Of a stretch of DNA of 64,000 nt, positions 1-28,540 are shown in pieces. The position numbers and the translations under genes are program-made. Location: NCBI GenBank assembly GCA_041660065.1, contig JBAZXC010000002.1, forward strand, positions 102,866 to 166,865, in the 5' to 3' direction. Within the stretch, counting starts at the first letter, position 1. Each line of letters opens with the position of its first letter. Source of the DNA: Parcubacteria group bacterium (GTDB lineage Bacteria; Patescibacteriota; Minisyncoccia; Moranbacterales; GCA-2747515). Under the pieces are notes generated by a model, which did not search any database, was not told the origin of the DNA, and saw nothing but the letters and a program-made list of their open reading frames with translations.

Positions 1-3000
1 ATGTGACCTTCATTGAGCTGTGTGCCCTTTGCCACGAGATCACCCTTCTTGACATTGATCGTTGAATTTGACGGTACATTGTATTTCTTTTGTTGCTTGC
101 GCTTGCCTTCTTTCTCGATCACGATCGTTACAGTTTTTCCGCCATCATCCTCAATATCGACAACTGCACCATCAATCTCGGAAATGATCGACTCGCCCTT
201 TGGCGTACGTGCTTCAAAGATCTCTTCTACACGAGGCAAACCTTGTGTAATATCAGATCCCGCAACACCACCAACGTGAAATGTACGCATCGTAAGTTGT
301 GTACCCGGTTCACCGATTGCCTGTGCTGCGACTGTCCCTACAGCCTGACCAAGTGCAACCAATCCCTTGCGACCGAGATCGACACCATAACACTTTTGAC
401 AAATACCTCGCAATGTCTTACATGATGTTGTCGTACGAATTTTGACCTTTTCGATGCCTGCTTTATCGATTTCCTGCGCTTGCTTTTTGTCGATCAAAAC
501 GCCTGACTCTACGATCACCTTATCCGTCTTTGGATGTTTGATCGCGCCAACCGATGTGCGTCCTTCTACACGTGATCCAAAATTGATACCGATGCGATCG
601 GAGTCTTGACGATAGACATATCCACCCACGCGATCACCACAGTTTTCTTCCGTGACAATCACATCTTGCGCAACATCCACGAGACGTCGTGTGAGATAAC
701 CGGCAGTTGCTGTACGAAGAGCCGTATCTGCCATACCTTTACGCGCACCATGCGTTGAGATGAAATACTCCAACACATCGAGACCTTCTTTGTATGAGCT
801 ACGTACCGGCAACTCCAATGTTTCACCTGTCGCGCCAGCCATAAGACCTTTCATACCGGTCATCTGTACGACAACGGATTCACTACCGCGAGCCTTGGAA
901 TACACCATGGAATATACAGGACCTTCTTTGTCCAATCCTGCACGCACAGCATCCGTAATGTCATCTTTTGCCTTGTTCCATGTATCGATCGTACGGTTCT
1001 TGCGTTCTTCGTTCGTGAGAAGTCCCATATCAAAGCTCTCTTTGATCCCTGCCACTTTTTGCTTTGCATCCTCAAGGATCGCTTTCTTCTCCACCGGCAC
1101 GACGAGATCATCCATGCCCCAACTGATACCGGAAAGTGTAACGCTCTTGAATCCCAGATTTTTGACGCGATCGATAAACGCTGCTGTTTCCTCTTGTCCG
1201 ACAGTGTCAAGCATCTTTCCAACAACATCTTTCAATTCTTTCTTTGTCATTTCTTGATTCAAAAAGCGCATCGATGCCGGCAAAATATCATTGAACATCC
1301 CGCGTCCGGCTGATGTCTTGTAGACTTTGCCCTTATAAAGAAGCGTGATCTCTGCATTGATCGCGATCGCTTCATTTTGATATGCCAAGATCGCCTCATC
1401 AATATTCGCAAAGATTTTTCCCTCACCCTTTGCGCCAGGTTTGATATGCGTGATGTAATAGATTCCCAACACAAGATCCAACGATGGTGTAGTGATCGGC
1501 TCTCCACTTGCAGGCTTGATCAAGTTTTTTGATGAAAGCATGATATTTGCGCTTTCCTCACGTGCCTTATCCGTAAGTGGCACATGTACTGCCATCTGAT
1601 CGCCATCAAAGTCTGCGTTGAATGCGGCACACACCATCGGATGCAACTGGATTGCTTTACCCTCGATCAATACCGGTTGGAATGATTGAATTGACAAACG
1701 GTGAAGGGTCGGCGCGCGGTTAAGCATCACATAATGGTGTGAGATAATATCATCCAAAATTTCATATGCCTCTTCCGTCTCATTGTCCACCATACGTCCT
1801 GCCGTACGCACATTGTGAGCGTACTCGCGTTCGATCAACTTGTTGATGATAAACGGTTTGAAAAGTTCCAATGCCATGCGTTTCGGCAGACCGGCCTGAT
1901 GCAACTTGAGTTGCGGACCAATCACGATAACGCTACGCCCTGAATAATCCACACGCTTACCCAAGAGATTCTGACGGAAACGTCCTTGTTTTCCTTTCAA
2001 TGAATCTGCGAGAGAACGAAGTGGACGTCGTTGTCCGGTTGATGCCGCAACAGATGCTTGTCCACGTCGTGCTGAATTATCAAAGAGTGCATCAACCGCC
2101 TCTTGCAACATACGCTTCTCATTACGTGTGATCACTTCCGGTGCACGCAATTCGAGCAATTTTTTCAGACGATTGTTACGGTTGATGATACGACGATAGA
2201 GATCATTGAGATCGGACGTTGCAAAACGTCCACCATCCAATGCAACCATCGGACGGAGATCCGGCGGGATCACAGGAATGATCGTCGGCAGCATCCATTC
2301 CAAATGAATATCTGCTTTTTTTATGCCCTGATAAAATTTGATCCGCTTGAGAAGTTTTTTCTTGAGAATGGAGTCCGCATCGTCGAGATGTTGCACGAGA
2401 CTTTTCATCATGTCATCCACATTCATATTCTTCAAGATTTTCTGCACAGCCTCCGCGCCAATTCCCGCAGTAAAAACTTGACCAAAACTCGTAGACAGAT
2501 TGAAATATTCCACCTCGCTCAAGATCTGATACAAAGCAAGAGATCGCAACGCATCACGTTTACTGCGATATTGTTTTTTGAGTTCTTGCATTCTCTCATC
2601 ATCACCGCTGGTTTTGATCTCCTTTTGCTTGTGCTTGAATTCACTCTCAAGATTTTCCATCGCTTTTTCACGCGCATCATCATCTACATCCGTCACGATA
2701 TATGATGAAAAGTAGATCACTTTTTCCAATGCCTGTGGGGAAAGTCCGAGAGCGAGACCAATCTTACTCGGCACACCGCGCAAAAACCAAATGTGTGATA
2801 CAGGCACAGCAAGCTGAATATGTCCCATGCGCTCACGACGAATGATCGAACGTGTTACTTCAACACCGCATTTGTCACATGTGATTCCTTTATAACGAAT
2901 ACGCTTGTATTTTCCACAATAACATTCCCAATCCTTTGACGGACCAAAAATGCGTTCACAAAACAAACCGTCCATTTCATAACGTTGTGTACGATAGTTG

Positions 3001-3110
3001 ATCGTTTCCGGTTTTGTGATCTCACCATGCGACCATCCGAGAATATTTTCCGGACTTGCGAGTCGGAGTCGGACGCTGTCGAAATCACTTACTTTTGTTG
3101 CATTTTCCAT
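1..3110 (-). CDS. rpoC: DNA-directed RNA polymerase subunit beta-prime (partial; C-terminus runs off the window start)
   Basis: Minus-strand translation from the ATG at 3108-3110 gives [85 protein letters not shown] (N-terminal Zn-finger). Downstream motifs include [14 protein letters not shown] (catalytic DxDGD). The frame is open to position 1 with no stop, which is why the ORF track does not list it. It sits immediately downstream of rpoB. Confidence 0.95.
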
Positions 3111-3146
3111 ATGTTTGATAAAGTTTAGATTTAATACATCGATGCA

Positions 3147-6100
3147 TTACTTCTCTTCTTTTTTTGCATCTTGTGCATCCTTCTCATCTGACTCGACTTT
3201 TTGTCCGATGAGTTCCACATCCAAACACAAACCCTTGAGTTCATTCACCAAAACATGGAATGACGCCGGAAGATTTGGACTCTTGATCTCTTCGCCCTTG
3301 ATGATTGCCTCATACGCCTTTGAACGTCCGAGTACATCATCAGATTTGATCGTCAACATTTCTTGCAATGTATGAGCGGCACCATAACCTTCCAATGCCC
3401 ATACCTCCATCTCTCCAAAACGCTGTCCACCAAACTGTGCTTTACCACCAAGCGGTTGTTGTGTGATCAATGAGTATGGTCCGATCGAGCGCATATGCAA
3501 CTTATCATCAACGAGATGATTCAACTTCATAATATACATCACACCGACAGTTGACTCATTATCAAACGGGCGTCCCGTCTTTCCATCGATCAAACCGATC
3601 TTTCCGCTTTCTGGAAGTCCCGCTGATTTAAGTTCTGCTTTGATATCTGCTTCAGATACACCGTCAAGCGCAGGTGTTGCTGCCGTGTAGCCATGCGCAC
3701 GTGCTGCCCATCCGAGATGCGTCTCCAAGATCTGACCGATATTCATACGACTTGCTACACCCAACGGATTCAAGATCACATCAACCGGTGTGCCGTCTGG
3801 CAAGTATGGCATATCCTCCACCGGTGCAATACGCGAGATCACACCCTTATTTCCATGACGCCCTGCGAGCTTGTCACCGACTGCGATTTTGCGCAATTGC
3901 GCAACAGAAATCTGAATTTGCTGGCTTACGCCTGTTGGCAAACGATCACCCTGATCTCGTGTAAATACTTTGATATCCACAACTTTTCCATGTTCACCAT
4001 GTGGTAAATACAGAGAAGAATCTTTTACATCACGGGATTTCTCACCAAAGATCGCACGAAGGAGACGTTCCTCTGCTGTGAGGTCACCCTCACCCTTTGG
4101 TGTGATCTTTCCGATCAAGATATCTCCCGATGACACTTCCGCTCCGATGCGCACGATGCCCGTCTCATCCAAGTTCTTCAGACGGTCTTCACCAATATTT
4201 GGGATATCACGTGTTACGATCTCAGGTCCGAGCTTTGTGTCACGCACATCCAATGAAAAATCTTCAATGTGGATCGAGCTATAACGGTCATCCTGCAATA
4301 CCTTTTCTGAAATGATGATCGCATCCTCAAAGTTAAATCCTTCCCATGGCACGAAAGCCACGAGCATATTTTGTCCGAGCGCAAGCTCACCATGATCAGT
4401 TGATGATCCGTCTGCGAGCAATTGCCCTTTCTTGATCACATCACCCTTGAGTACACGCGGCACCTGATTCATCGATGTAAACGCGTTGGACTTCATAAAT
4501 GTATGAAGCAAGTATTCTCTTTTATTTGTTTTTTTCTTCGCACCTGCCGGTGCTTCTTCTTCCACGACAATATGATTGCCATCCACAGAAATCACCTTTC
4601 CCGGGTTTTTTGCAATCACTGCCTGACCGGAATCCGCTGCCGCTTTGTCTTCGATACCTGTTCCCACAAGCGGTGCTTCCGGTTTGACACACGACACAGC
4701 CTGACGTTGCATGTTCGAGCCCATAAGTGCACGGTTTGCATCATCATGCTCCAAGAAAGGAATAAGTGCTGTCGCCACAGAAATACACTGCTTTGGTGAC
4801 ACGTCAATATATTCAACACTTGTCACACTTACCATATCCGGCTGACCGCTGACACGCGCTTCTACCATCTTTTCCACGATGTTGCGATGCTCATCAAGTA
4901 CTGTGCCACCATGTGCGATCGTCAATCGATCTTCTACAGTCGCATTGATATATTCGATTTTGTCCGTTACAAACGGCACGACATGGATCATGTCTTTTTT
5001 CTCTTTCGCGATCTTTTTTGCAAGAGTTTCATCGATCAATGTACCGATAGCACAATCACCGATTTTCTCCGTTAAAATACGACCGACAAGATCATCTGCA
5101 GTATTTGCGACTTCTTGCGCCACTTTCAAGTATGGTGTTTCGAGAAATCCATATTCATTGATCCGTGCATATGTCGCCAAATGTCCGACGAGTCCGATAT
5201 TCGGTCCTTCCGGTGTTTCTACAGGACAGATGCGTCCATAATGAGAATGATGCACATCACGCACTTCAAATCCCGCACGCTCACGCGTCAAACCACCGGG
5301 TCCAAGGGCACTTAAGCGACGCTTATGCTCCAACTCTGCAAGCGGATTTACCTGATCCATAAACTGCGACAACTGTGAGCTGGAAAAAAATTCTTTGATC
5401 GCAGCTGCAACCGGACGAGAATTGATGATCTGTCCCGGCACAACCGTATCCACATCACACGTACTCATGCGATCTTTGATATTGCGTGCCATACGCGCAA
5501 AACCGATACGCATTTTGTTTTGGATAAGTTCTCCCACACCACGCACGCGACGATTGCCCAAATGATCGATATCATCTGCCTGTGCTTGCGGATTATTGTT
5601 CATGCGAATGATCTCCTTGATAATGAGAACAAAGTCCTCCACATTTAAAATACGATTTTCTGGGTTATTTGCTCTATCAAGTTTCAATCGTTGGTTGAGA
5701 CGGTATCGTCCCACCGCACCAAAGTCATAACGATCAAAGTTAAAAAACATTGCATCAACCATTTGTTTTGCATTCTCTTCTGTTGCAAGGTCTCCCGGAC
5801 GTACGCGTTTATATACCTCCTTGTATCCCTCACCTTGCGATGTTGTAATATCTTTTGCAAGCGTTTCACCGATATGATCTACGTCGATCACTTCCACATC
5901 CTGTGCAAAAAGTGCACGAATCTGATCATTAGTACCATGCCCAAAAGCACGCAATAGCGCCGTCACCGGCAATTTGCGCTTACGATCGATCTTCACATAG
6001 ATCACACCATCACGATCTGTCTCAAGCTCCAACCATGCACCACGATTTGGAATGATTTTTGCACCAAAAAACTTACGGCCTTTGATGTATTCCATCGAAA

Positions 6101-15775: not shown

Positions 15776-15857
15776 ATCTATGTCATCCTGAACTTGTTTC
15801 AGGATCTCGCGCTTATGGTTTATATAGATCCTGAAACAAGTTCAGGATGACATAGAT
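15776..15857. repeat. 32-bp perfect inverted repeat (atctatgtcatcctgaacttgtttcaggatct) with an 18-nt spacer, in the rdgB/smpB divergent intergenic region
   Basis: Arm 1 (15776-15807) is the exact reverse complement of arm 2 (15826-15857). Each arm also contains a nested palindrome (cctgaa...ttcagg). Confidence 0.9.
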
Positions 15858-24602: not shown

Positions 24603-25829
24603 ATGAATACAATAGCAAAAAAGGAGGATTTCCCTATTTTTACACAAAACCCACAACTTGTATACCTCGACTCCGCCGCGACAGCATTGACGCCACAGAT
24701 CGTCATCGACAAATTGTGCGAATATTACACTACATACAACGCCAATATTGCACGCGGTCTTTATGCGATTAGCACGCGTGCAACGATTGAATTTGAAGCG
24801 TCACGACAAGTTGTTGCTCAATTTATCAATGCACGCGAAAATGAGATCGTTTTTACTTCCGGCACCACGATGAGTCTCAATATGATCGCATATGGGTTAG
24901 CCGATACGATCACAGCGCAAAACAATATCGTTACGACCGCCATGGAGCATCATGCGAATTTTATCCCATGGCAACAACTCTGCGAAAGAACAGGTGCCCA
25001 ATTTCGTGTTGCCACGATCACAGAAGACGGAGAGATTGATCAAAATCATCTACTAGACCTCATTGACGCCGATACGTCCGTTGTTGCATTGACCCATGTA
25101 TCCAATGTTCTCGGAACGATCAATCCGATCAAGGAGATCATCGCAAAAATCCGAACAAAAAAACCTGACACACTGATTGTCATCGATGCCGCACAGTCGA
25201 TCGCACACTTACCGATCGATGTTGCTGATATTGATTGTGATTTCCTCGCTTTTTCCATGCATAAAGTTTTTGGCCCGACTGGTGTCGGCATCCTCTATGG
25301 CAAAAAGAGCTCCCTCGAAAAACTCCGACCCGTTTTTACCGGTGGCGACATGATCGAAAGCGTGTCCACTTGCACCACAACATTTCGCGAACTCCCGCAT
25401 CGATTAGAAGCCGGTACACCACATATTGCCGGCGTGATCGCAACCAAAACCGCACTTGACTATCTCTCACGCATTGGTTATCAAGCAATTCGTGCACATG
25501 AAGAAGATCTCCTTGCATATTGTATCTCGCAATTGAAAGAACATTTCGGAGAGACAATTACAATTATCGGACCAAAAGAGATCGAAAAACGTTCCGGGCT
25601 TATCAGTTTTACGTTTGGCAATTTCCACCCGCACGACATCGCCACGATCCTTGATGACAGCGCCTCTGTCGCGATTCGTGCCGGACAACACTGCACGATG
25701 CCACTCCACATCGAAACCCTCCACATCAACGCTACCGCTCGCGCGAGCTTCTCTATTTACAACACCAGAGAGGACATCGACGCTCTTATCACCGGCCTCA
25801 AAAATGTTTCCGATACACTGTCAAAATAA
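24603..25829 (+). CDS. sufS: Cysteine desulfurase (class V aminotransferase, SufS/NifS-like)
   Basis: 408 aa. PLP-lysine region SMHKVFGPTGVGILY. Followed by sufU and sufT homologues. Confidence 0.85.
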   Translation: MNTIAKKEDFPIFTQNPQLVYLDSAATALTPQIVIDKLCEYYTTYNANIARGLYAISTRATIEFEASRQVVAQFINARENEIVFTSGTTMSLNMIAYGLADTITAQNNIVTTAMEHHANFIPWQQLCERTGAQFRVATITEDGEIDQNHLLDLIDADTSVVALTHVSNVLGTINPIKEIIAKIRTKKPDTLIVIDAAQSIAHLPIDVADIDCDFLAFSMHKVFGPTGVGILYGKKSSLEKLRPVFTGGDMIESVSTCTTTFRELPHRLEAGTPHIAGVIATKTALDYLSRIGYQAIRAHEEDLLAYCISQLKEHFGETITIIGPKEIEKRSGLISFTFGNFHPHDIATILDDSASVAIRAGQHCTMPLHIETLHINATARASFSIYNTREDIDALITGLKNVSDTLSK

Positions 25830-25891
25830 TACTTCCTATGACCATTTTTCTTTTCCTACCACCTACAACCTAACTCTTACCACCTATTTAT

Positions 25892-26269
25892 ATGAACATT
25901 TACCAAGAAAAAATTCTCGACCATTACCACAATCCGCGCAACGCCGGCACGATTGACGCACCTACACATAAATGTTGTGCCGACAATCCTACATGCGGAG
26001 ATAAGATCTGTGTCACACTCATGATCGATGACGATCATATCACTGATGTAAAATTTACCGGTGACGGTTGCGCCATCTCTCAAGCGGCAGCGTCACTTGT
26101 CACAGAAAAGATCAGTGGCAATACAGTTGTAAACGCACTAAAACTCACACGCAATGATATTACAGAGATGCTTGGCGTAGAGATCGGCATCGGTCGCATT
26201 AAATGTGCTCTCCTCGGCATCGAAACCATTCAAAAAGCCATTCAATGCGGACAGGTCGATAAAAACTAA
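25892..26269 (+). CDS. sufU: Fe-S cluster assembly scaffold (SufU/IscU-like, NifU N-terminal domain)
   Basis: Conserved Cys ligands in GDKICVTLMID, FTGDGCAISQAAASL and RIKCALLG. Confidence 0.75.
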   Translation: MNIYQEKILDHYHNPRNAGTIDAPTHKCCADNPTCGDKICVTLMIDDDHITDVKFTGDGCAISQAAASLVTEKISGNTVVNALKLTRNDITEMLGVEIGIGRIKCALLGIETIQKAIQCGQVDKN

Positions 26270-26315
26270 ACCGTTCGTCATTTTTTCTAAAAAACCCAAG
26301 ATTCTATAACATCTT

Positions 26316-26615
26316 ATGTACATCGACAAAGACTTATTACAAAAACTACACACCGTTATCGATCCGGAGCTCAACATCCCCATCACCGACATGGGACTGA
26401 TCTATGGCATCAAACAAGTTGACGATACTGTCCACGTCACCATGACACTCACAACGATCGGCTGTCCGCTCTATGACGTGATCCATGACGAGATCGTGCG
26501 CACACTCACCACAGACCCTTCGATCAAAGACGTGCAAATTGAACTCACATTTGATCCCCCATGGACACCGGACATGATGACCGACGCCACTAAAATGGAA
26601 ATTGGATTTTTGTAG
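26316..26615 (+). CDS. sufT: DUF59 / SufT-like Fe-S assembly protein (MIP18 family)
   Basis: IDPELNIPITDMGLIYGI...TLTTIGCPL is characteristic of DUF59. Confidence 0.7.
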   Translation: MYIDKDLLQKLHTVIDPELNIPITDMGLIYGIKQVDDTVHVTMTLTTIGCPLYDVIHDEIVRTLTTDPSIKDVQIELTFDPPWTPDMMTDATKMEIGFL

Positions 26616-26637
26616 CATTTACTTTTTATGCCAAAAA

Positions 26638-26661
26638 CAAAAAAATTGTCATTCCTGCGAA
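26638..26661. repeat. 24-bp palindromic element gtcattcctgcgaaggcaggaatc (stem attcctgc/gcaggaat); likely a bidirectional terminator and the left copy of a pair flanking the GIY-YIG gene
   Basis: 8-bp perfect stem with a gaag loop. A-rich upstream and T-rich downstream on both strands. A near-identical copy sits at 27145-27168. Confidence 0.8.
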
Positions 26662-26678
26662 GGCAGGAATCTTTACAT

Positions 26679-26948
26679 TTACAAAGTTTCATATAGATCC
26701 TTCCAATGCGGGTTTTCTTTCTCAATCAAATTGATTTTCCAATCTCTTTTCCATTTTTTTAATTGCTTTTCACGCACCAGCGCAGAGTGAACATCAGTCG
26801 TTTGTTCAAAATACATCAACCTATGCACAAAATATTTCTGCGTGAATCCGTCTGCTATATTATTTTTGTGCTCCCACACTCTTTTTTGAAGATTGGATGT
26901 TACGCCAATATACAATACACCGTTTTTCTTGCTTGCTAAAATATACAC
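26679..26948 (-). CDS. GIY-YIG nuclease superfamily protein (UPF0213/YhbQ-like)
   Basis: YILASKKNGVLYIGVTSNLQKRVWEHK is a classic GIY-YIG motif. GTG start; the frame is closed by a stop 3 codons upstream. Confidence 0.8.
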   Translation of the reverse strand: MYILASKKNGVLYIGVTSNLQKRVWEHKNNIADGFTQKYFVHRLMYFEQTTDVHSALVREKQLKKWKRDWKINLIEKENPHWKDLYETL

Positions 26949-26956
26949 GAAATATT

Positions 26957-27116
26957 ATACCATCCTCAACTAACCACTTCTCATAAGTCGCAGTAAAATC
27001 TTGCGCAAAAACTGGAGAAAAAATACGAAGCATATCTGGATATATGTAGTATTTTTTATCCTGTTTTTGCCAAGATTTTCAAGACTTGGTGGGGAGTGGT
27101 TAGTTGAGGATGGTAT
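26957..27116. repeat. 21-bp perfect inverted repeat (ataccatcctcaactaaccac / gtggttagttgaggatggtat) bracketing a 118-bp segment just upstream of the GIY-YIG start
   Basis: Exact reverse-complement arms at 26957-26977 and 27096-27116. Confidence 0.9.
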
Positions 27117-27144
27117 TACTTCATTTTTTTGATATGAAAGAAAG

Positions 27145-27168
27145 ATTCCTGCCTGCGCAGGAATGACG
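27145..27168. repeat. Second copy (inverted orientation) of the 24-bp palindromic element: gattcctgcctgcgcaggaatgac
   Basis: Its reverse complement gtcattcctgcgcaggcaggaatc differs from the 26638-26661 copy only in the loop. Confidence 0.8.
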
Positions 27169-27204
27169 CGTAGAGGGTTTGCTTATATCTTTTCTAAATC
27201 CCTA

Positions 27205-27330
27205 CTGTGTCGGATTTCACTGGGTTTGCCCTGTGAAATTACTTCATACCGACCGAGTCGGATTTAACTGGGTTTACCCTGTTAAATTACTTTGTACCAA
27301 CTGCGTTGGATTTAACAGGGTCAACCCATT
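27205..27330. repeat. About 2.6 tandem copies of a 48-bp repeat overlapping the 3' end of ispG
   Basis: Unit A (27205-27252) and unit B (27253-27300) share 40 of 48 positions. A partial third unit runs 27301-27330. This repeat generates the spurious plus ORF 27179-27589 with VGFHWVCPVKLL/VGFNWVYPVKLL repeats. Confidence 0.85.
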
Positions 27331-28540
27331 TCCCTTTTTCTTTGATCAGTGCAACCAATGCATCAATTGCGTCTTCCTCCGGAAGATTTCTTTGTACCAC
27401 TTCTTTGCCATAGTACAAACTGATCTTACCTGGTGCGCCACCGACATAGCCAAAATCTGCATCCGCCATTTCACCCGGGCCGTTGACGATGCACCCCATC
27501 ACGGCGATCTTTACACCGGTCAGATGTCCCAGTTTTTGCTTGATCTTTTTTGTCACGGATGCAATGTCAAAAAGTGTGCGACCGCATGATGGGCAGGAAA
27601 TAAATTCTGCTTTGGAAATACGTCGTTTTGTCGCTTGCAGAATCGTAAAACATACAGGGATCTCATCCTCTGGTGGCTCTGTGAGAGAGACGCGCAACGT
27701 ATCACCGATTCCCTCCAAGAGAAGCGTGCCGATCCCAATCGTTGATTTGGCACGTCCATCCTCTTCGCTCCCCGCTTCCGTCACACCGAGATGGATTGGG
27801 TAATCCATATTTTCCTCATCCATTTTATGCGCAAGTAATCTGTTTGCCTCGATCATTGCCGTCGGGTCAGATGCTTTGATCGCGACGACGATATTGTGAT
27901 AATCATTTTTCTGAAACACACGCAGATATTCCATCACGCTTTCCACAAGCCCATAAGGCGTATTGCCATACTTGCCCAACACGCGTCCGGAAAGCGACCC
28001 CCAATTCGCGCCAATGCGAATCGGTTTTTGTGTCTTTTTCAATTCAGCGATAAATGGTTTTAGTCCCTCCTCAATCCTCTCCAACTCTTGTTGATATTCT
28101 CTATCAGTCAAAATTTTGTCACCACTACCACGACTGTCCAACAAATTTCCCGGATTCAATCGGATTTTATCTGCATATATAAGCGCTTCAAACGCCGCCG
28201 CTTTGTCAAAGTGAATATCCGCAACGATCGGCACGGTGCAATGATGCTTTTTTTGCAAAATATCTTTGATCTCTTTGAGCGCGTGCACATGTTTGACCGT
28301 CGGCGTCGTGATCCGCACCAGCTCCGATCCGGCATCCACGCATCGCATAATTTGCGCAACTGTCGCCGCAATATCAAGCGTGTCCGTATTGGTCATTGTT
28401 TGTACGCGAATTGGATGATCACCTCCAATGCCTACATTTCCCACCATCACAACGCGTGTCTTACGTCTCGGTAATAATGCTGCAAATTGATCTGTGTTAT
28501 TCATAAGCGCCTCATTTAATAAATTACCTTCGTTTGACAA
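27287..28540 (-). CDS. ispG: 4-hydroxy-3-methylbut-2-en-1-yl diphosphate synthase (IspG/GcpE)
   Basis: 417 aa. N-terminal TIM-barrel region (RRKTRVVMVGNVGIGGDHPIRVQTMTNT) and a C-terminal [4Fe-4S] Cys cluster (ISCPSCGRT...GCIVNGPGE). Confidence 0.95.
   Translation of the reverse strand: MSNEGNLLNEALMNNTDQFAALLPRRKTRVVMVGNVGIGGDHPIRVQTMTNTDTLDIAATVAQIMRCVDAGSELVRITTPTVKHVHALKEIKDILQKKHHCTVPIVADIHFDKAAAFEALIYADKIRLNPGNLLDSRGSGDKILTDREYQQELERIEEGLKPFIAELKKTQKPIRIGANWGSLSGRVLGKYGNTPYGLVESVMEYLRVFQKNDYHNIVVAIKASDPTAMIEANRLLAHKMDEENMDYPIHLGVTEAGSEEDGRAKSTIGIGTLLLEGIGDTLRVSLTEPPEDEIPVCFTILQATKRRISKAEFISCPSCGRTLFDIASVTKKIKQKLGHLTGVKIAVMGCIVNGPGEMADADFGYVGGAPGKISLYYGKEVVQRNLPEEDAIDALVALIKEKGKWVDPVKSNAVGTK

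Follow-up and report, generated by a model that had tools for sequence, protein, structure and literature searches.

Between sufT and ispG, the 64-kb stretch of contig JBAZXC010000002.1 analysed here (64,000 nt from a Parcubacteria group bacterium; hereafter the window, with positions counted from its first letter) carries a small nuclease gene flanked by two inverted hairpin repeats. We propose that this cassette is a Ssn/NTS module, that is, a gene of the Ssn family of GIY-YIG nucleases (ssn) with an oriented copy of the hairpin presumed to be its cognate site on either side, and we consider this reading about 85% probable. The module was published in 2025 by Chenal et al. (Nat Commun, PMC11893778); the window adds a member and not a concept. 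That paper does not name the Candidate Phyla Radiation (CPR)/Patescibacteria as Ssn hosts, and the window places Ssn/NTS in very small genomes of CPR type in a minimal form of one gene and two sites.

The characterised relative, SsnA of Neisseria, is a 94-amino-acid (aa) single-domain GIY-YIG protein (CDD cd10448, GIY-YIG_unchar_3) that binds the 28-nt NTS (CGTCATTCCCGCGMAVGCGGGAATCYRG, with dRS3 inside) at a nanomolar Kd, as single-stranded DNA (ssDNA) only and on the forward strand only (PMC11893778). Cleavage occurs a few nucleotides upstream of the NTS; going by the described oligo design, the cut of N. meningitidis SsnA lies 3 nt 5' of the 28-nt NTS. Within the site, cleavage depends above all on the GTC triplet and binding on the C that follows the palindrome, and loop identity is dispensable for cleavage (PMC11893778). 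The same authors described the NTS-ssnA-NTS layout, likened it to an insertion sequence (IS), an analogy raised without evidence of mobility, and compared it with REP/RAYT systems (repetitive extragenic palindromes and their associated tyrosine transposases). They also defined a degenerate flanking 'Ssn-related motif' (SRM), reported beside 71% of homologs and on both sides in 42% (PMC11893778).

The nuclease gene and its flanking hairpins

26679-26948, minus strand: ssn, the open reading frame (ORF) of a GIY-YIG nuclease with a single domain; it starts at GTG 26948 and has 89 codons and a stop
26647-26674, plus strand: downstream NTS-like hairpin, T-GTC-ATTCCTGC-GAAG-GCAGGAAT-C-TTT, forward on the ssn antisense strand
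27141-27168, minus strand: upstream NTS-like hairpin, C-GTC-ATTCCTGC-GCAG-GCAGGAAT-C-TTT, forward on the ssn sense strand

The gene at 26679-26948 is the only credible ORF between the repeats, and its product matches the Pfam GIY-YIG domain (PF01541, E 3.2e-14) over residues 2-73 of 89 with no further domain, the length before an insertion described below having been ~93 aa. Its size agrees with that of the Ssn family (a single GIY-YIG domain of less than 150 aa, SsnA having 94 aa). Against the 94-aa SsnA ortholog of N. gonorrhoeae, the window protein aligns without gaps over 86 aa at 50% identity and 76% positives (E 1e-32), which passes the homology cut-off of E < 1e-10 used by Chenal et al. 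(PMC11893778) with the gonococcal ortholog as the reference. This reference came from locus L081 (NZ_CP119140.1 1880778-1884044), part of a 2.17-Mb N. gonorrhoeae chromosome deposited as 'plasmid', and has Y6, Y17 and E64 at exactly the positions mutated in PMC11893778. Their equivalents in the window protein, the presumptive catalytic residues Y2, Y13 and E60, do not vary across an alignment of 11 sequences, in which Y, Y, R, H and E are all invariant.

An earlier note on this DNA, made from the sequence alone, had described a discrete cassette with oriented inverted repeats and a small GIY-YIG nuclease as its only gene, and this description holds. Its label 'YhbQ-type' has to be given up. 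E. coli YhbQ (UPF0213) is likewise a small stand-alone GIY-YIG domain of ~100 aa, but it is only 21% identical to the window protein (E 4e-5) and lacks the C-terminal motif REKQLKKWKRxWK…NPxWxDL of Ssn. Judged by its sequence, the window protein belongs to the Ssn family and not to the YhbQ/UPF0213 type. NCBIfam returned no specific model for Ssn, far-sub-threshold matches to a group I intron endonuclease and a DEDD exonuclease being uninformative, and a sequence search of the PDB found no solved Ssn homolog, only the UvrC N-terminal domain (E 0.002). No record was returned by an exact-sequence look-up of the 89-aa product. Homologs were absent from the INPHARED phages and limited to one partial match in IMG/VR, which lends no support to a phage vehicle.

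The two repeats, GTCATTCCTGCGAAGGCAGGAATC at 26648-26671 (plus strand) and GTCATTCCTGCGCAGGCAGGAATC at 27144-27167 (minus strand), extend through …CTTT to an inverted repeat of 27 nt with arms at 26648-26674 and 27141-27167, complementary at 26 of 27 positions, with loop position 2 as the sole mismatch. The earlier note had quoted both 24-mers exactly and correctly confined their difference to the loop, but its coordinates need shifting by 10 nt for the left repeat and by 1 nt for the right one, and the segment bounded by the repeats measures 520 bp, not 531 bp. It had also held the pair to be beyond chance, and we agree: with up to three mismatches allowed, the 24-mer matches twice in 64 kb against 0.00 expected from 100 dinucleotide shuffles, and the looser pattern ATTCCTGC-N4-GCAGGAAT finds the same two matches and no more in the window. 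Folded as DNA, each repeat gives a stem of 8 bp closed by a loop of 4 nt (-7.7 kcal/mol; z -5.2 and -3.4), and the non-palindromic flanks (GTC… and …CTTT) make each hairpin copy directional. The GTC triplet, the 8-bp stem and the C 3' of the palindrome are present in both elements.

One element lies 4 nt past the ssn stop and the other 192 nt before the GTG (28 nt when the insertion is subtracted), so that on the 5' side of the gene as well as on its 3' side an element is found within 500 bp, the placement by which an SRM is recognised. Beyond them stand sufT (PF01883), sufU and sufS on one side and ispG (PF04551) on the other. In the window the 24-mer is not a common feature of gene ends, and where relatives have the gene at this locus the repeats accompany it, so that neither of the two findings that the earlier note would have taken as a refutation was made. 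As a dispersed multi-copy repeat, such as is seen in Neisseria, Wolbachia and Rickettsia, the hairpin was not found: only the two flanking copies occur in 64 kb, and none was detected in the distal flanks of Moraniibacteriota loci. The gonococcal ssnA region (L081), by comparison, packs 10 NTS copies into 3.3 kb, most of them arranged in forward/reverse pairs with a spacing of 75-150 nt. The REP-like module that the earlier note had offered as an alternative is conceptually close, the same hairpin being the multi-copy NTS/dRS3 of Neisseria.

Conservation of the module and its residence at the ispG-sufT junction

A protein search of one genome per species returned 383 relatives, of which the best 80 loci (L001-L080) were kept. 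With protein identities of 55-87%, these best 80 loci are spread over Patescibacteria, Pseudomonadota, Planctomycetota, Nitrospirota, Acidobacteriota, Chloroflexota, Bacteroidota and one halobacterial metagenome-assembled genome (MAG), and in most of them the hairpin GTCATTCCYGC-N4-GCRGGAATC adjoins the ssn homolog. Counted with up to 3 mismatches, a hairpin lies within 250 bp of the gene in 51/80 loci and on both sides in 36, and the window arrangement (forward upstream, reverse downstream) is found in 24 of these 36 two-sided loci. Hairpin density is 3.07/kb near the gene and 0.071/kb in the remaining 367 kb of flanks, a 43-fold difference. In most of the 29 loci without a counted hairpin, variants of it such as GTCAT-CCCGGG-CTTGA-CCCGGG-ATC occupy the same positions.

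The stems of these elements covary. In a set of 119 distinct elements, pairing holds for 99.7% of stem cells, and 6/8 pairs show compensatory double changes (ATACC/GGTAT, ATCCC/GGGAT, GTTCC/GGAAC and others). The covariation score is 0.272; shuffles give 0.112 (0/500 reach 0.272), and sliding the partners never yields more than 0.099. Conservation stands at ~99% for both the GTC triplet and the 3' C (122 elements), and throughout the family the tail on the 3' side reads CCAG and is not enriched in T. These patterns indicate that the hairpin is maintained by selection. We also observed that the 4-nt loop is constrained to G-N-A-N, with G as the first base in 116/122 elements and A as the third in 122/122.

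At the junction itself, the arrangement ispG-NTS-ssn-NTS-sufT-sufU-sufS recurs in the same order and orientation in the Moraniibacteriota loci L001 (complete genome CP175956.1) and L002, and the metagenome contigs L083/L084 are apparently identical to L001 (equal match values). The core 24-mer of the downstream window element is identical to NTS copies of L001 and L002, and the upstream element is the ortholog of 2943-2969 in L001/L002, with one loop difference. Overall, the NTS cores are identical at 24/24 positions among the window, L001 and L002, except in the L001 downstream copy, which has a compensated T:A→A:T pair and a changed loop base. Compared with the Moraniibacteriota genomes, the 4-fold sites of ssn are 43-45% identical and those of ispG, sufT, sufU and sufS 15-47%; this match in divergence suggests that the cassette diverged along with its neighbours by vertical descent. 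The second codon positions of ssn are 97-98% identical, and protein identity to the syntenic Moraniibacteriota is 85-88% for Ssn, 79% for ispG and 62-72% for sufS/U/T. Conservation of Ssn and NTS despite saturated synonymous sites argues for purifying selection on both the protein and the sites, and strong selection of this kind on non-coding hairpins has evidently persisted over a time span sufficient to saturate synonymous positions.

From these comparisons the cassette is an old resident of the ispG-sufT junction and not a recent arrival, and the window lineage is probably Candidatus Moraniibacteriota. The earlier note's phrase 'inserted between sufT and ispG' is thus right as to location, but the synteny with L001/L002 and the saturated 4-fold sites speak against a recent event. 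A recent lateral replacement of the cassette among Moraniibacteriota, considered because Ssn is more conserved than its neighbours, was ruled out since its 4-fold sites have diverged like those of ispG/sufT.

The same note had proposed comparing the junction among relatives and looking for a target-site duplication. The cassette is present in L001, L002 and L083/L084, whereas L086, a comparably related locus (ispG C-terminal half 85%, sufT 73%), has a 192-aa ORF at the junction and no ssn or NTS; a presence/absence polymorphism therefore exists but is old. No target-site duplication flanks the window cassette, there being no shared direct k-mer of at least 4 nt within 20 nt outside its ends.

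Further observations concern the surroundings of the cassette. The ORFs found at the ispG-sufT junction of relatives are mutually unrelated (178 + 153 aa at L001 1827-2835, 288 aa at L002 1959-2822, 192 aa at L086 737-1315). Those of L001/L002 sit on the ispG side of the cassette, and that of L086 stands in its place. Since different ORFs occupy it among relatives, the junction is a variable spot, and it recalls the dRS3-bracketed 'minimal mobile element' sites of Neisseria. Adjoining the upstream NTS, three tandem 48-nt units (27191-27334; the second and third 79% and 60% identical to the first) each contain a small internal hairpin, and the last ~11 codons and the stop of ispG come from the third unit, this tail not aligning with relatives. 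On the other side, two independent short-read assemblies of the same organism from the European Nucleotide Archive and the Joint Genome Institute (L090/L091, window 25674-26630) stop at 26630 and 26629. These ends, 18 nt before the NTS, could mean that a repeat broke the assembly or that strains differ at the edge of the cassette.

Proposed mechanism, a palindromic insertion and duplicated cassettes

By analogy with N. meningitidis SsnA, the window Ssn would ignore duplex DNA and RNA and bind the hairpin when the GTCATTCC… strand is single-stranded, as could occur in incoming transforming DNA, replication/repair intermediates or extruded cruciforms. It would then cut the bound strand ~4 nt 5' of GTC, at the following predicted positions:

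26643/26644 (±2 nt), plus strand: Ssn cut predicted by analogy with N. meningitidis SsnA, lying outside the cassette at ~4 nt 5' of GTC
27172/27171 (±2 nt), minus strand: predicted Ssn cut, ~4 nt 5' of GTC and outside the cassette, by the same analogy and in line with the L012/L019 homology, which ends 3-5 nt outside GTC

Because the sites are inverted, there would be one cleavable site per strand, and the two cuts would be made just outside the cassette. Selection on protein and sites keeps the module in this lineage, with no spread as a repeat family in 64 kb. Restriction/modulation of incoming ssDNA, as in Neisseria, is the sole experimentally supported role of the Ssn family (PMC11893778), and a minimal system of this kind offers a clean case for the role of the nuclease when the only visible genomic targets are its own flanks.

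The start of ssn in this strain has been altered by an insertion:

26955-27118, no strand assigned: near-perfect palindromic insertion of ~164 nt, whose ends are inverted repeats of 27 nt (ATACCATCCTCAACTAACCACT…) and which is flanked by TAA at either end
27119-27124, minus strand: orphaned ancestral ssn start, ATG AAG, which runs straight into TAA (27118-27116)

The ~164-nt insertion splits codon 2 from codon 3 of the ancestral ssn frame, L001 and L002 being without it at exactly that point. In L001/L002 the gene starts ATG AAA CAG/CAA TAT TGT GTA TAT (MKQYCVYIL), and the corresponding region of the window reads ATG AAG TAA…[insertion]…TAT TTC GTG TAT ATT. As the ATG is cut off, expression of ssn, if any, must start at GTG 26948, at the cost of ~4 poorly conserved N-terminal residues and with the V/M-Y-I-L strand kept. 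The end of the insertion provides a TATAAT 5 nt upstream of this GTG. The palindrome folds at -75.9 kcal/mol (z -12.6). An Rfam match to MIR1435 over it, a plant microRNA, scored 46.6 bits against a gathering score of 94 and was rejected as a generic long AT-rich hairpin. No further copies were found in the window, in the 88 fetched loci or in viral contigs, and with no second copy the palindrome is not callable as a family of miniature inverted-repeat transposable elements.

Copies of the cassette in different contexts are found in relatives only (L012/L019, L016/L044, and L006 versus L016), where MAG binning errors are possible, and none was seen for the window's own cassette. Three pairs of loci stem from single MAGs (L012/L019, L016/L044 and L002/L004). 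In the Moraniibacteriota MAG E19, L012 and L019 (both 2944-3300) share 96% identity confined to the 357 nt of hairpin-ssn-hairpin; the homology extends outward by 3 nt from the upstream GTC and by 5 nt from the downstream GTC, the flanks are unrelated, and no target-site duplication accompanies this pair. In another MAG, L016 2890-3366 and L044 2889-3620 have in common the cassette and ~55 nt on each side, and L002/L004 have no more than ~75% nucleotide identity across the gene. In comparisons between genomes and between phyla, wherever nucleotide homology extends as far as the hairpins, it ends 0-9 nt outside GTC. As separate observations, the ~55-nt extensions of L016/L044 look partly inverted-repeated (TTACGTG…TTTTGCA), and within L044 the 3' part of ssn is duplicated in tandem together with its hairpin.

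A further element in the window, made of a second type of hairpin, may be related:

15780-15852, no strand assigned: gene-less doublet of two identical 25-nt GTCATCCTGAACTTGTTTCAGGATC hairpins, forward/reverse and 20 nt apart (z -15)

The doublet lies between an ITPase-like gene and smpB, with no ssn beside it, and shares the GTCAT-stem-CTTGN-stem-ATC design with the hairpins flanking the ssn homologs L012/L019, L011, L046 and L074. It could be related to the ssn hairpins, either as a doublet like the REPINs (REP doublets forming hairpins) or the NIMEs (Neisseria intergenic mosaic elements), or as a relic of a cassette.

In the duplicated loci the ends of the cassette fit the cuts expected from the nuclease, the cases being few and subject to MAG binning. 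The loss of L012/L019 homology 3-5 nt outside GTC falls where the Neisseria enzyme cuts and lends some support to a nuclease-delimited mobile element, which, if real, would be of a new kind. We tentatively suggest, as a possibility that we regard as doubtful, that the hairpin-ssn-hairpin unit is, or descends from, such an element: its ends would be set by its own GIY-YIG ssDNA cuts, made on opposite strands just outside the hairpins and leaving no target-site duplication, with gene-less doublets such as 15780-15852 as non-autonomous derivatives of REPIN/NIME type and the variable ispG-sufT cargo as a by-product of recombination that these sites promote. In the cassette-limited duplications the IS-like hypothesis finds its first evidence from sequence, though this is still thin.

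Weighing of the readings and comparison with known systems

Several points weigh against the Ssn/NTS reading. The strict NTS consensus and the degenerate SRM motif have 0 matches in the window. The published motifs miss the window elements because stem pair six is T:A and not C:G (the V and B codes exclude T and A), and the strict consensus also fails because the window tail is TTT and not YRG. Among elements next to close homologs, the T:A variant (54/121) is about as common as C:G (57), mixed pairs being rare, so that the published motif appears too narrow and its failure is not evidence against homology; genome-wide SRM counts in the literature are then probably underestimates. That the window Ssn recognises the hairpins as its cognate sites is assumed, and in Neisseria changing the palindrome while keeping the hairpin abolished SsnA activity (PMC11893778). 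The two sites in its own flanks are the only visible Ssn targets in 64 kb, and the hairpins also match a terminator in position and shape. The state of the gene is a further point: upstream of ssn its frame meets two stops, the first usable start, GTG 26948, is without a good Shine-Dalgarno sequence, and in the public contig L089, 100% identical to the window over 5.8 kb, no gene is called between sufT and ispG.

The function of ssn in this strain is accordingly uncertain, and we see some possibility, though we doubt it, that the insertion has only recently knocked the gene out, leaving a fresh pseudogene and hairpins that are relics without a working partner. An ancestral start that now reads ATG AAG TAA, the in-frame stops that leave GTG as the only start and the uncalled ORF in L089 would all follow from such a loss. 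However, the 89 codons after the insertion are intact and keep every conserved residue, including the first strand V/M-Y-I-L, only the poorly conserved N-terminal residues are gone, and the insertion end supplies a TATAAT before the GTG; even a pseudogene would leave the identity of the module unchanged. An active, autonomous IS-like transposon, recently inserted between sufT and ispG with the 27-nt repeats as its ends, is decidedly unlikely. Such an element would explain the inverted ends (26/27) around a single nuclease gene, the L086 junction without the cassette, the hairpin-ssn-hairpin units duplicated elsewhere with homology confined to the unit (L012/L019, L016/L044), the cross-phylum homology ending 0-9 nt outside GTC and the IS-like layout remarked upon in PMC11893778. 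It is difficult to reconcile with the same locus and orientation in L001 and L002 at saturated synonymous sites, with the missing target-site duplication, with one copy in the window and with the scarcity of viral homologs (none in INPHARED phages, one partial match in IMG/VR). The only ORF encodes a GIY-YIG nuclease, with no DDE, HUH, serine or tyrosine transposase, and with one cleavable site on each of the two strands, excision as a single strand, after the manner of IS200/IS605, would fail. To our knowledge, a hydrolytic GIY-YIG nuclease has no strand-transfer chemistry.

Very unlikely, in our view, is that the hairpins chiefly insulate sufT, ssn and ispG or serve them as intrinsic terminators in both directions, an alternative that the earlier note had raised for the terminator, and that their link to the GIY-YIG gene is incidental. 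In a simple scan 3/4 strand readings are terminator-like in this AT-rich genome, and one element lies between the convergent sufT and ssn with the other after ispG. The same sequence nevertheless flanks homologs in many phyla, so that more than the fold is conserved, and is 43-fold denser near the gene, its consensus tail is CCAG without T enrichment, and GTC and the 3' C are ~99% conserved though irrelevant to termination. No other gene end in 64 kb carries the element, and the Neisseria enzyme binds its site with nanomolar affinity (PMC11893778). Scarcely credible is a free-standing homing endonuclease of GIY-YIG type, copied in by repair once it has cut a sufT-ispG allele that lacks it. The presence/absence polymorphism at the junction would suit it, but the protein is a single domain of 89-94 aa with no DNA-binding extension, there is no intron or intein context and no homolog in INPHARED phages, the conserved recognition sites lie within the element's own ends and not in the empty target, and the characterised homolog does not cut double-stranded DNA (PMC11893778).

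We therefore retain the Ssn/NTS module as the best explanation of the cassette. The window adds details beyond PMC11893778, namely the T:A stem variant, the ~164-nt insertion, the duplicated cassettes of one relative MAG that end 3-5 nt outside the hairpins and the doublet at 15780-15852. With the published system it shares a ~90-aa single-domain GIY-YIG protein with conserved Y/Y/E and 50% identity to gonococcal SsnA, oriented GTC-hairpin-C elements on both sides and the NTS-ssn-NTS layout. It differs in its CPR/Patescibacteria-type host, in the compensated T:A pair and TTT tail that place its hairpins outside the published SRM motif, in the start codon displaced by the palindromic insertion and in the lack of repeat expansion (2 copies in 64 kb compared with 10 in 3.3 kb around gonococcal ssnA).

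Two other repeat systems invite comparison. The dRS3 of Neisseria has the form ATTCCC-N8-GGGAAT, and NIMEs are intergenic mosaic elements. Common to these and the window are the palindrome core ATTCCYGC…GCRGGAAT and inverted pairs around short or variable DNA, and the doublet 15780-15852 together with the variable ispG-sufT cargo resembles the behaviour of NIMEs and minimal mobile elements, whereas copy number in the window is very low. With REP/REPIN sequences and their RAYTs (IS200/IS605-like HUH enzymes), the Ssn module shares a single-copy nuclease gene between inverted hairpins that are recognised as ssDNA, and the window shows, as they do, repeat doublets elsewhere and no target-site duplication. 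Unlike RAYTs, however, Ssn has a GIY-YIG and not an HUH/Y1 fold, with hydrolytic cleavage and no covalent intermediate known.

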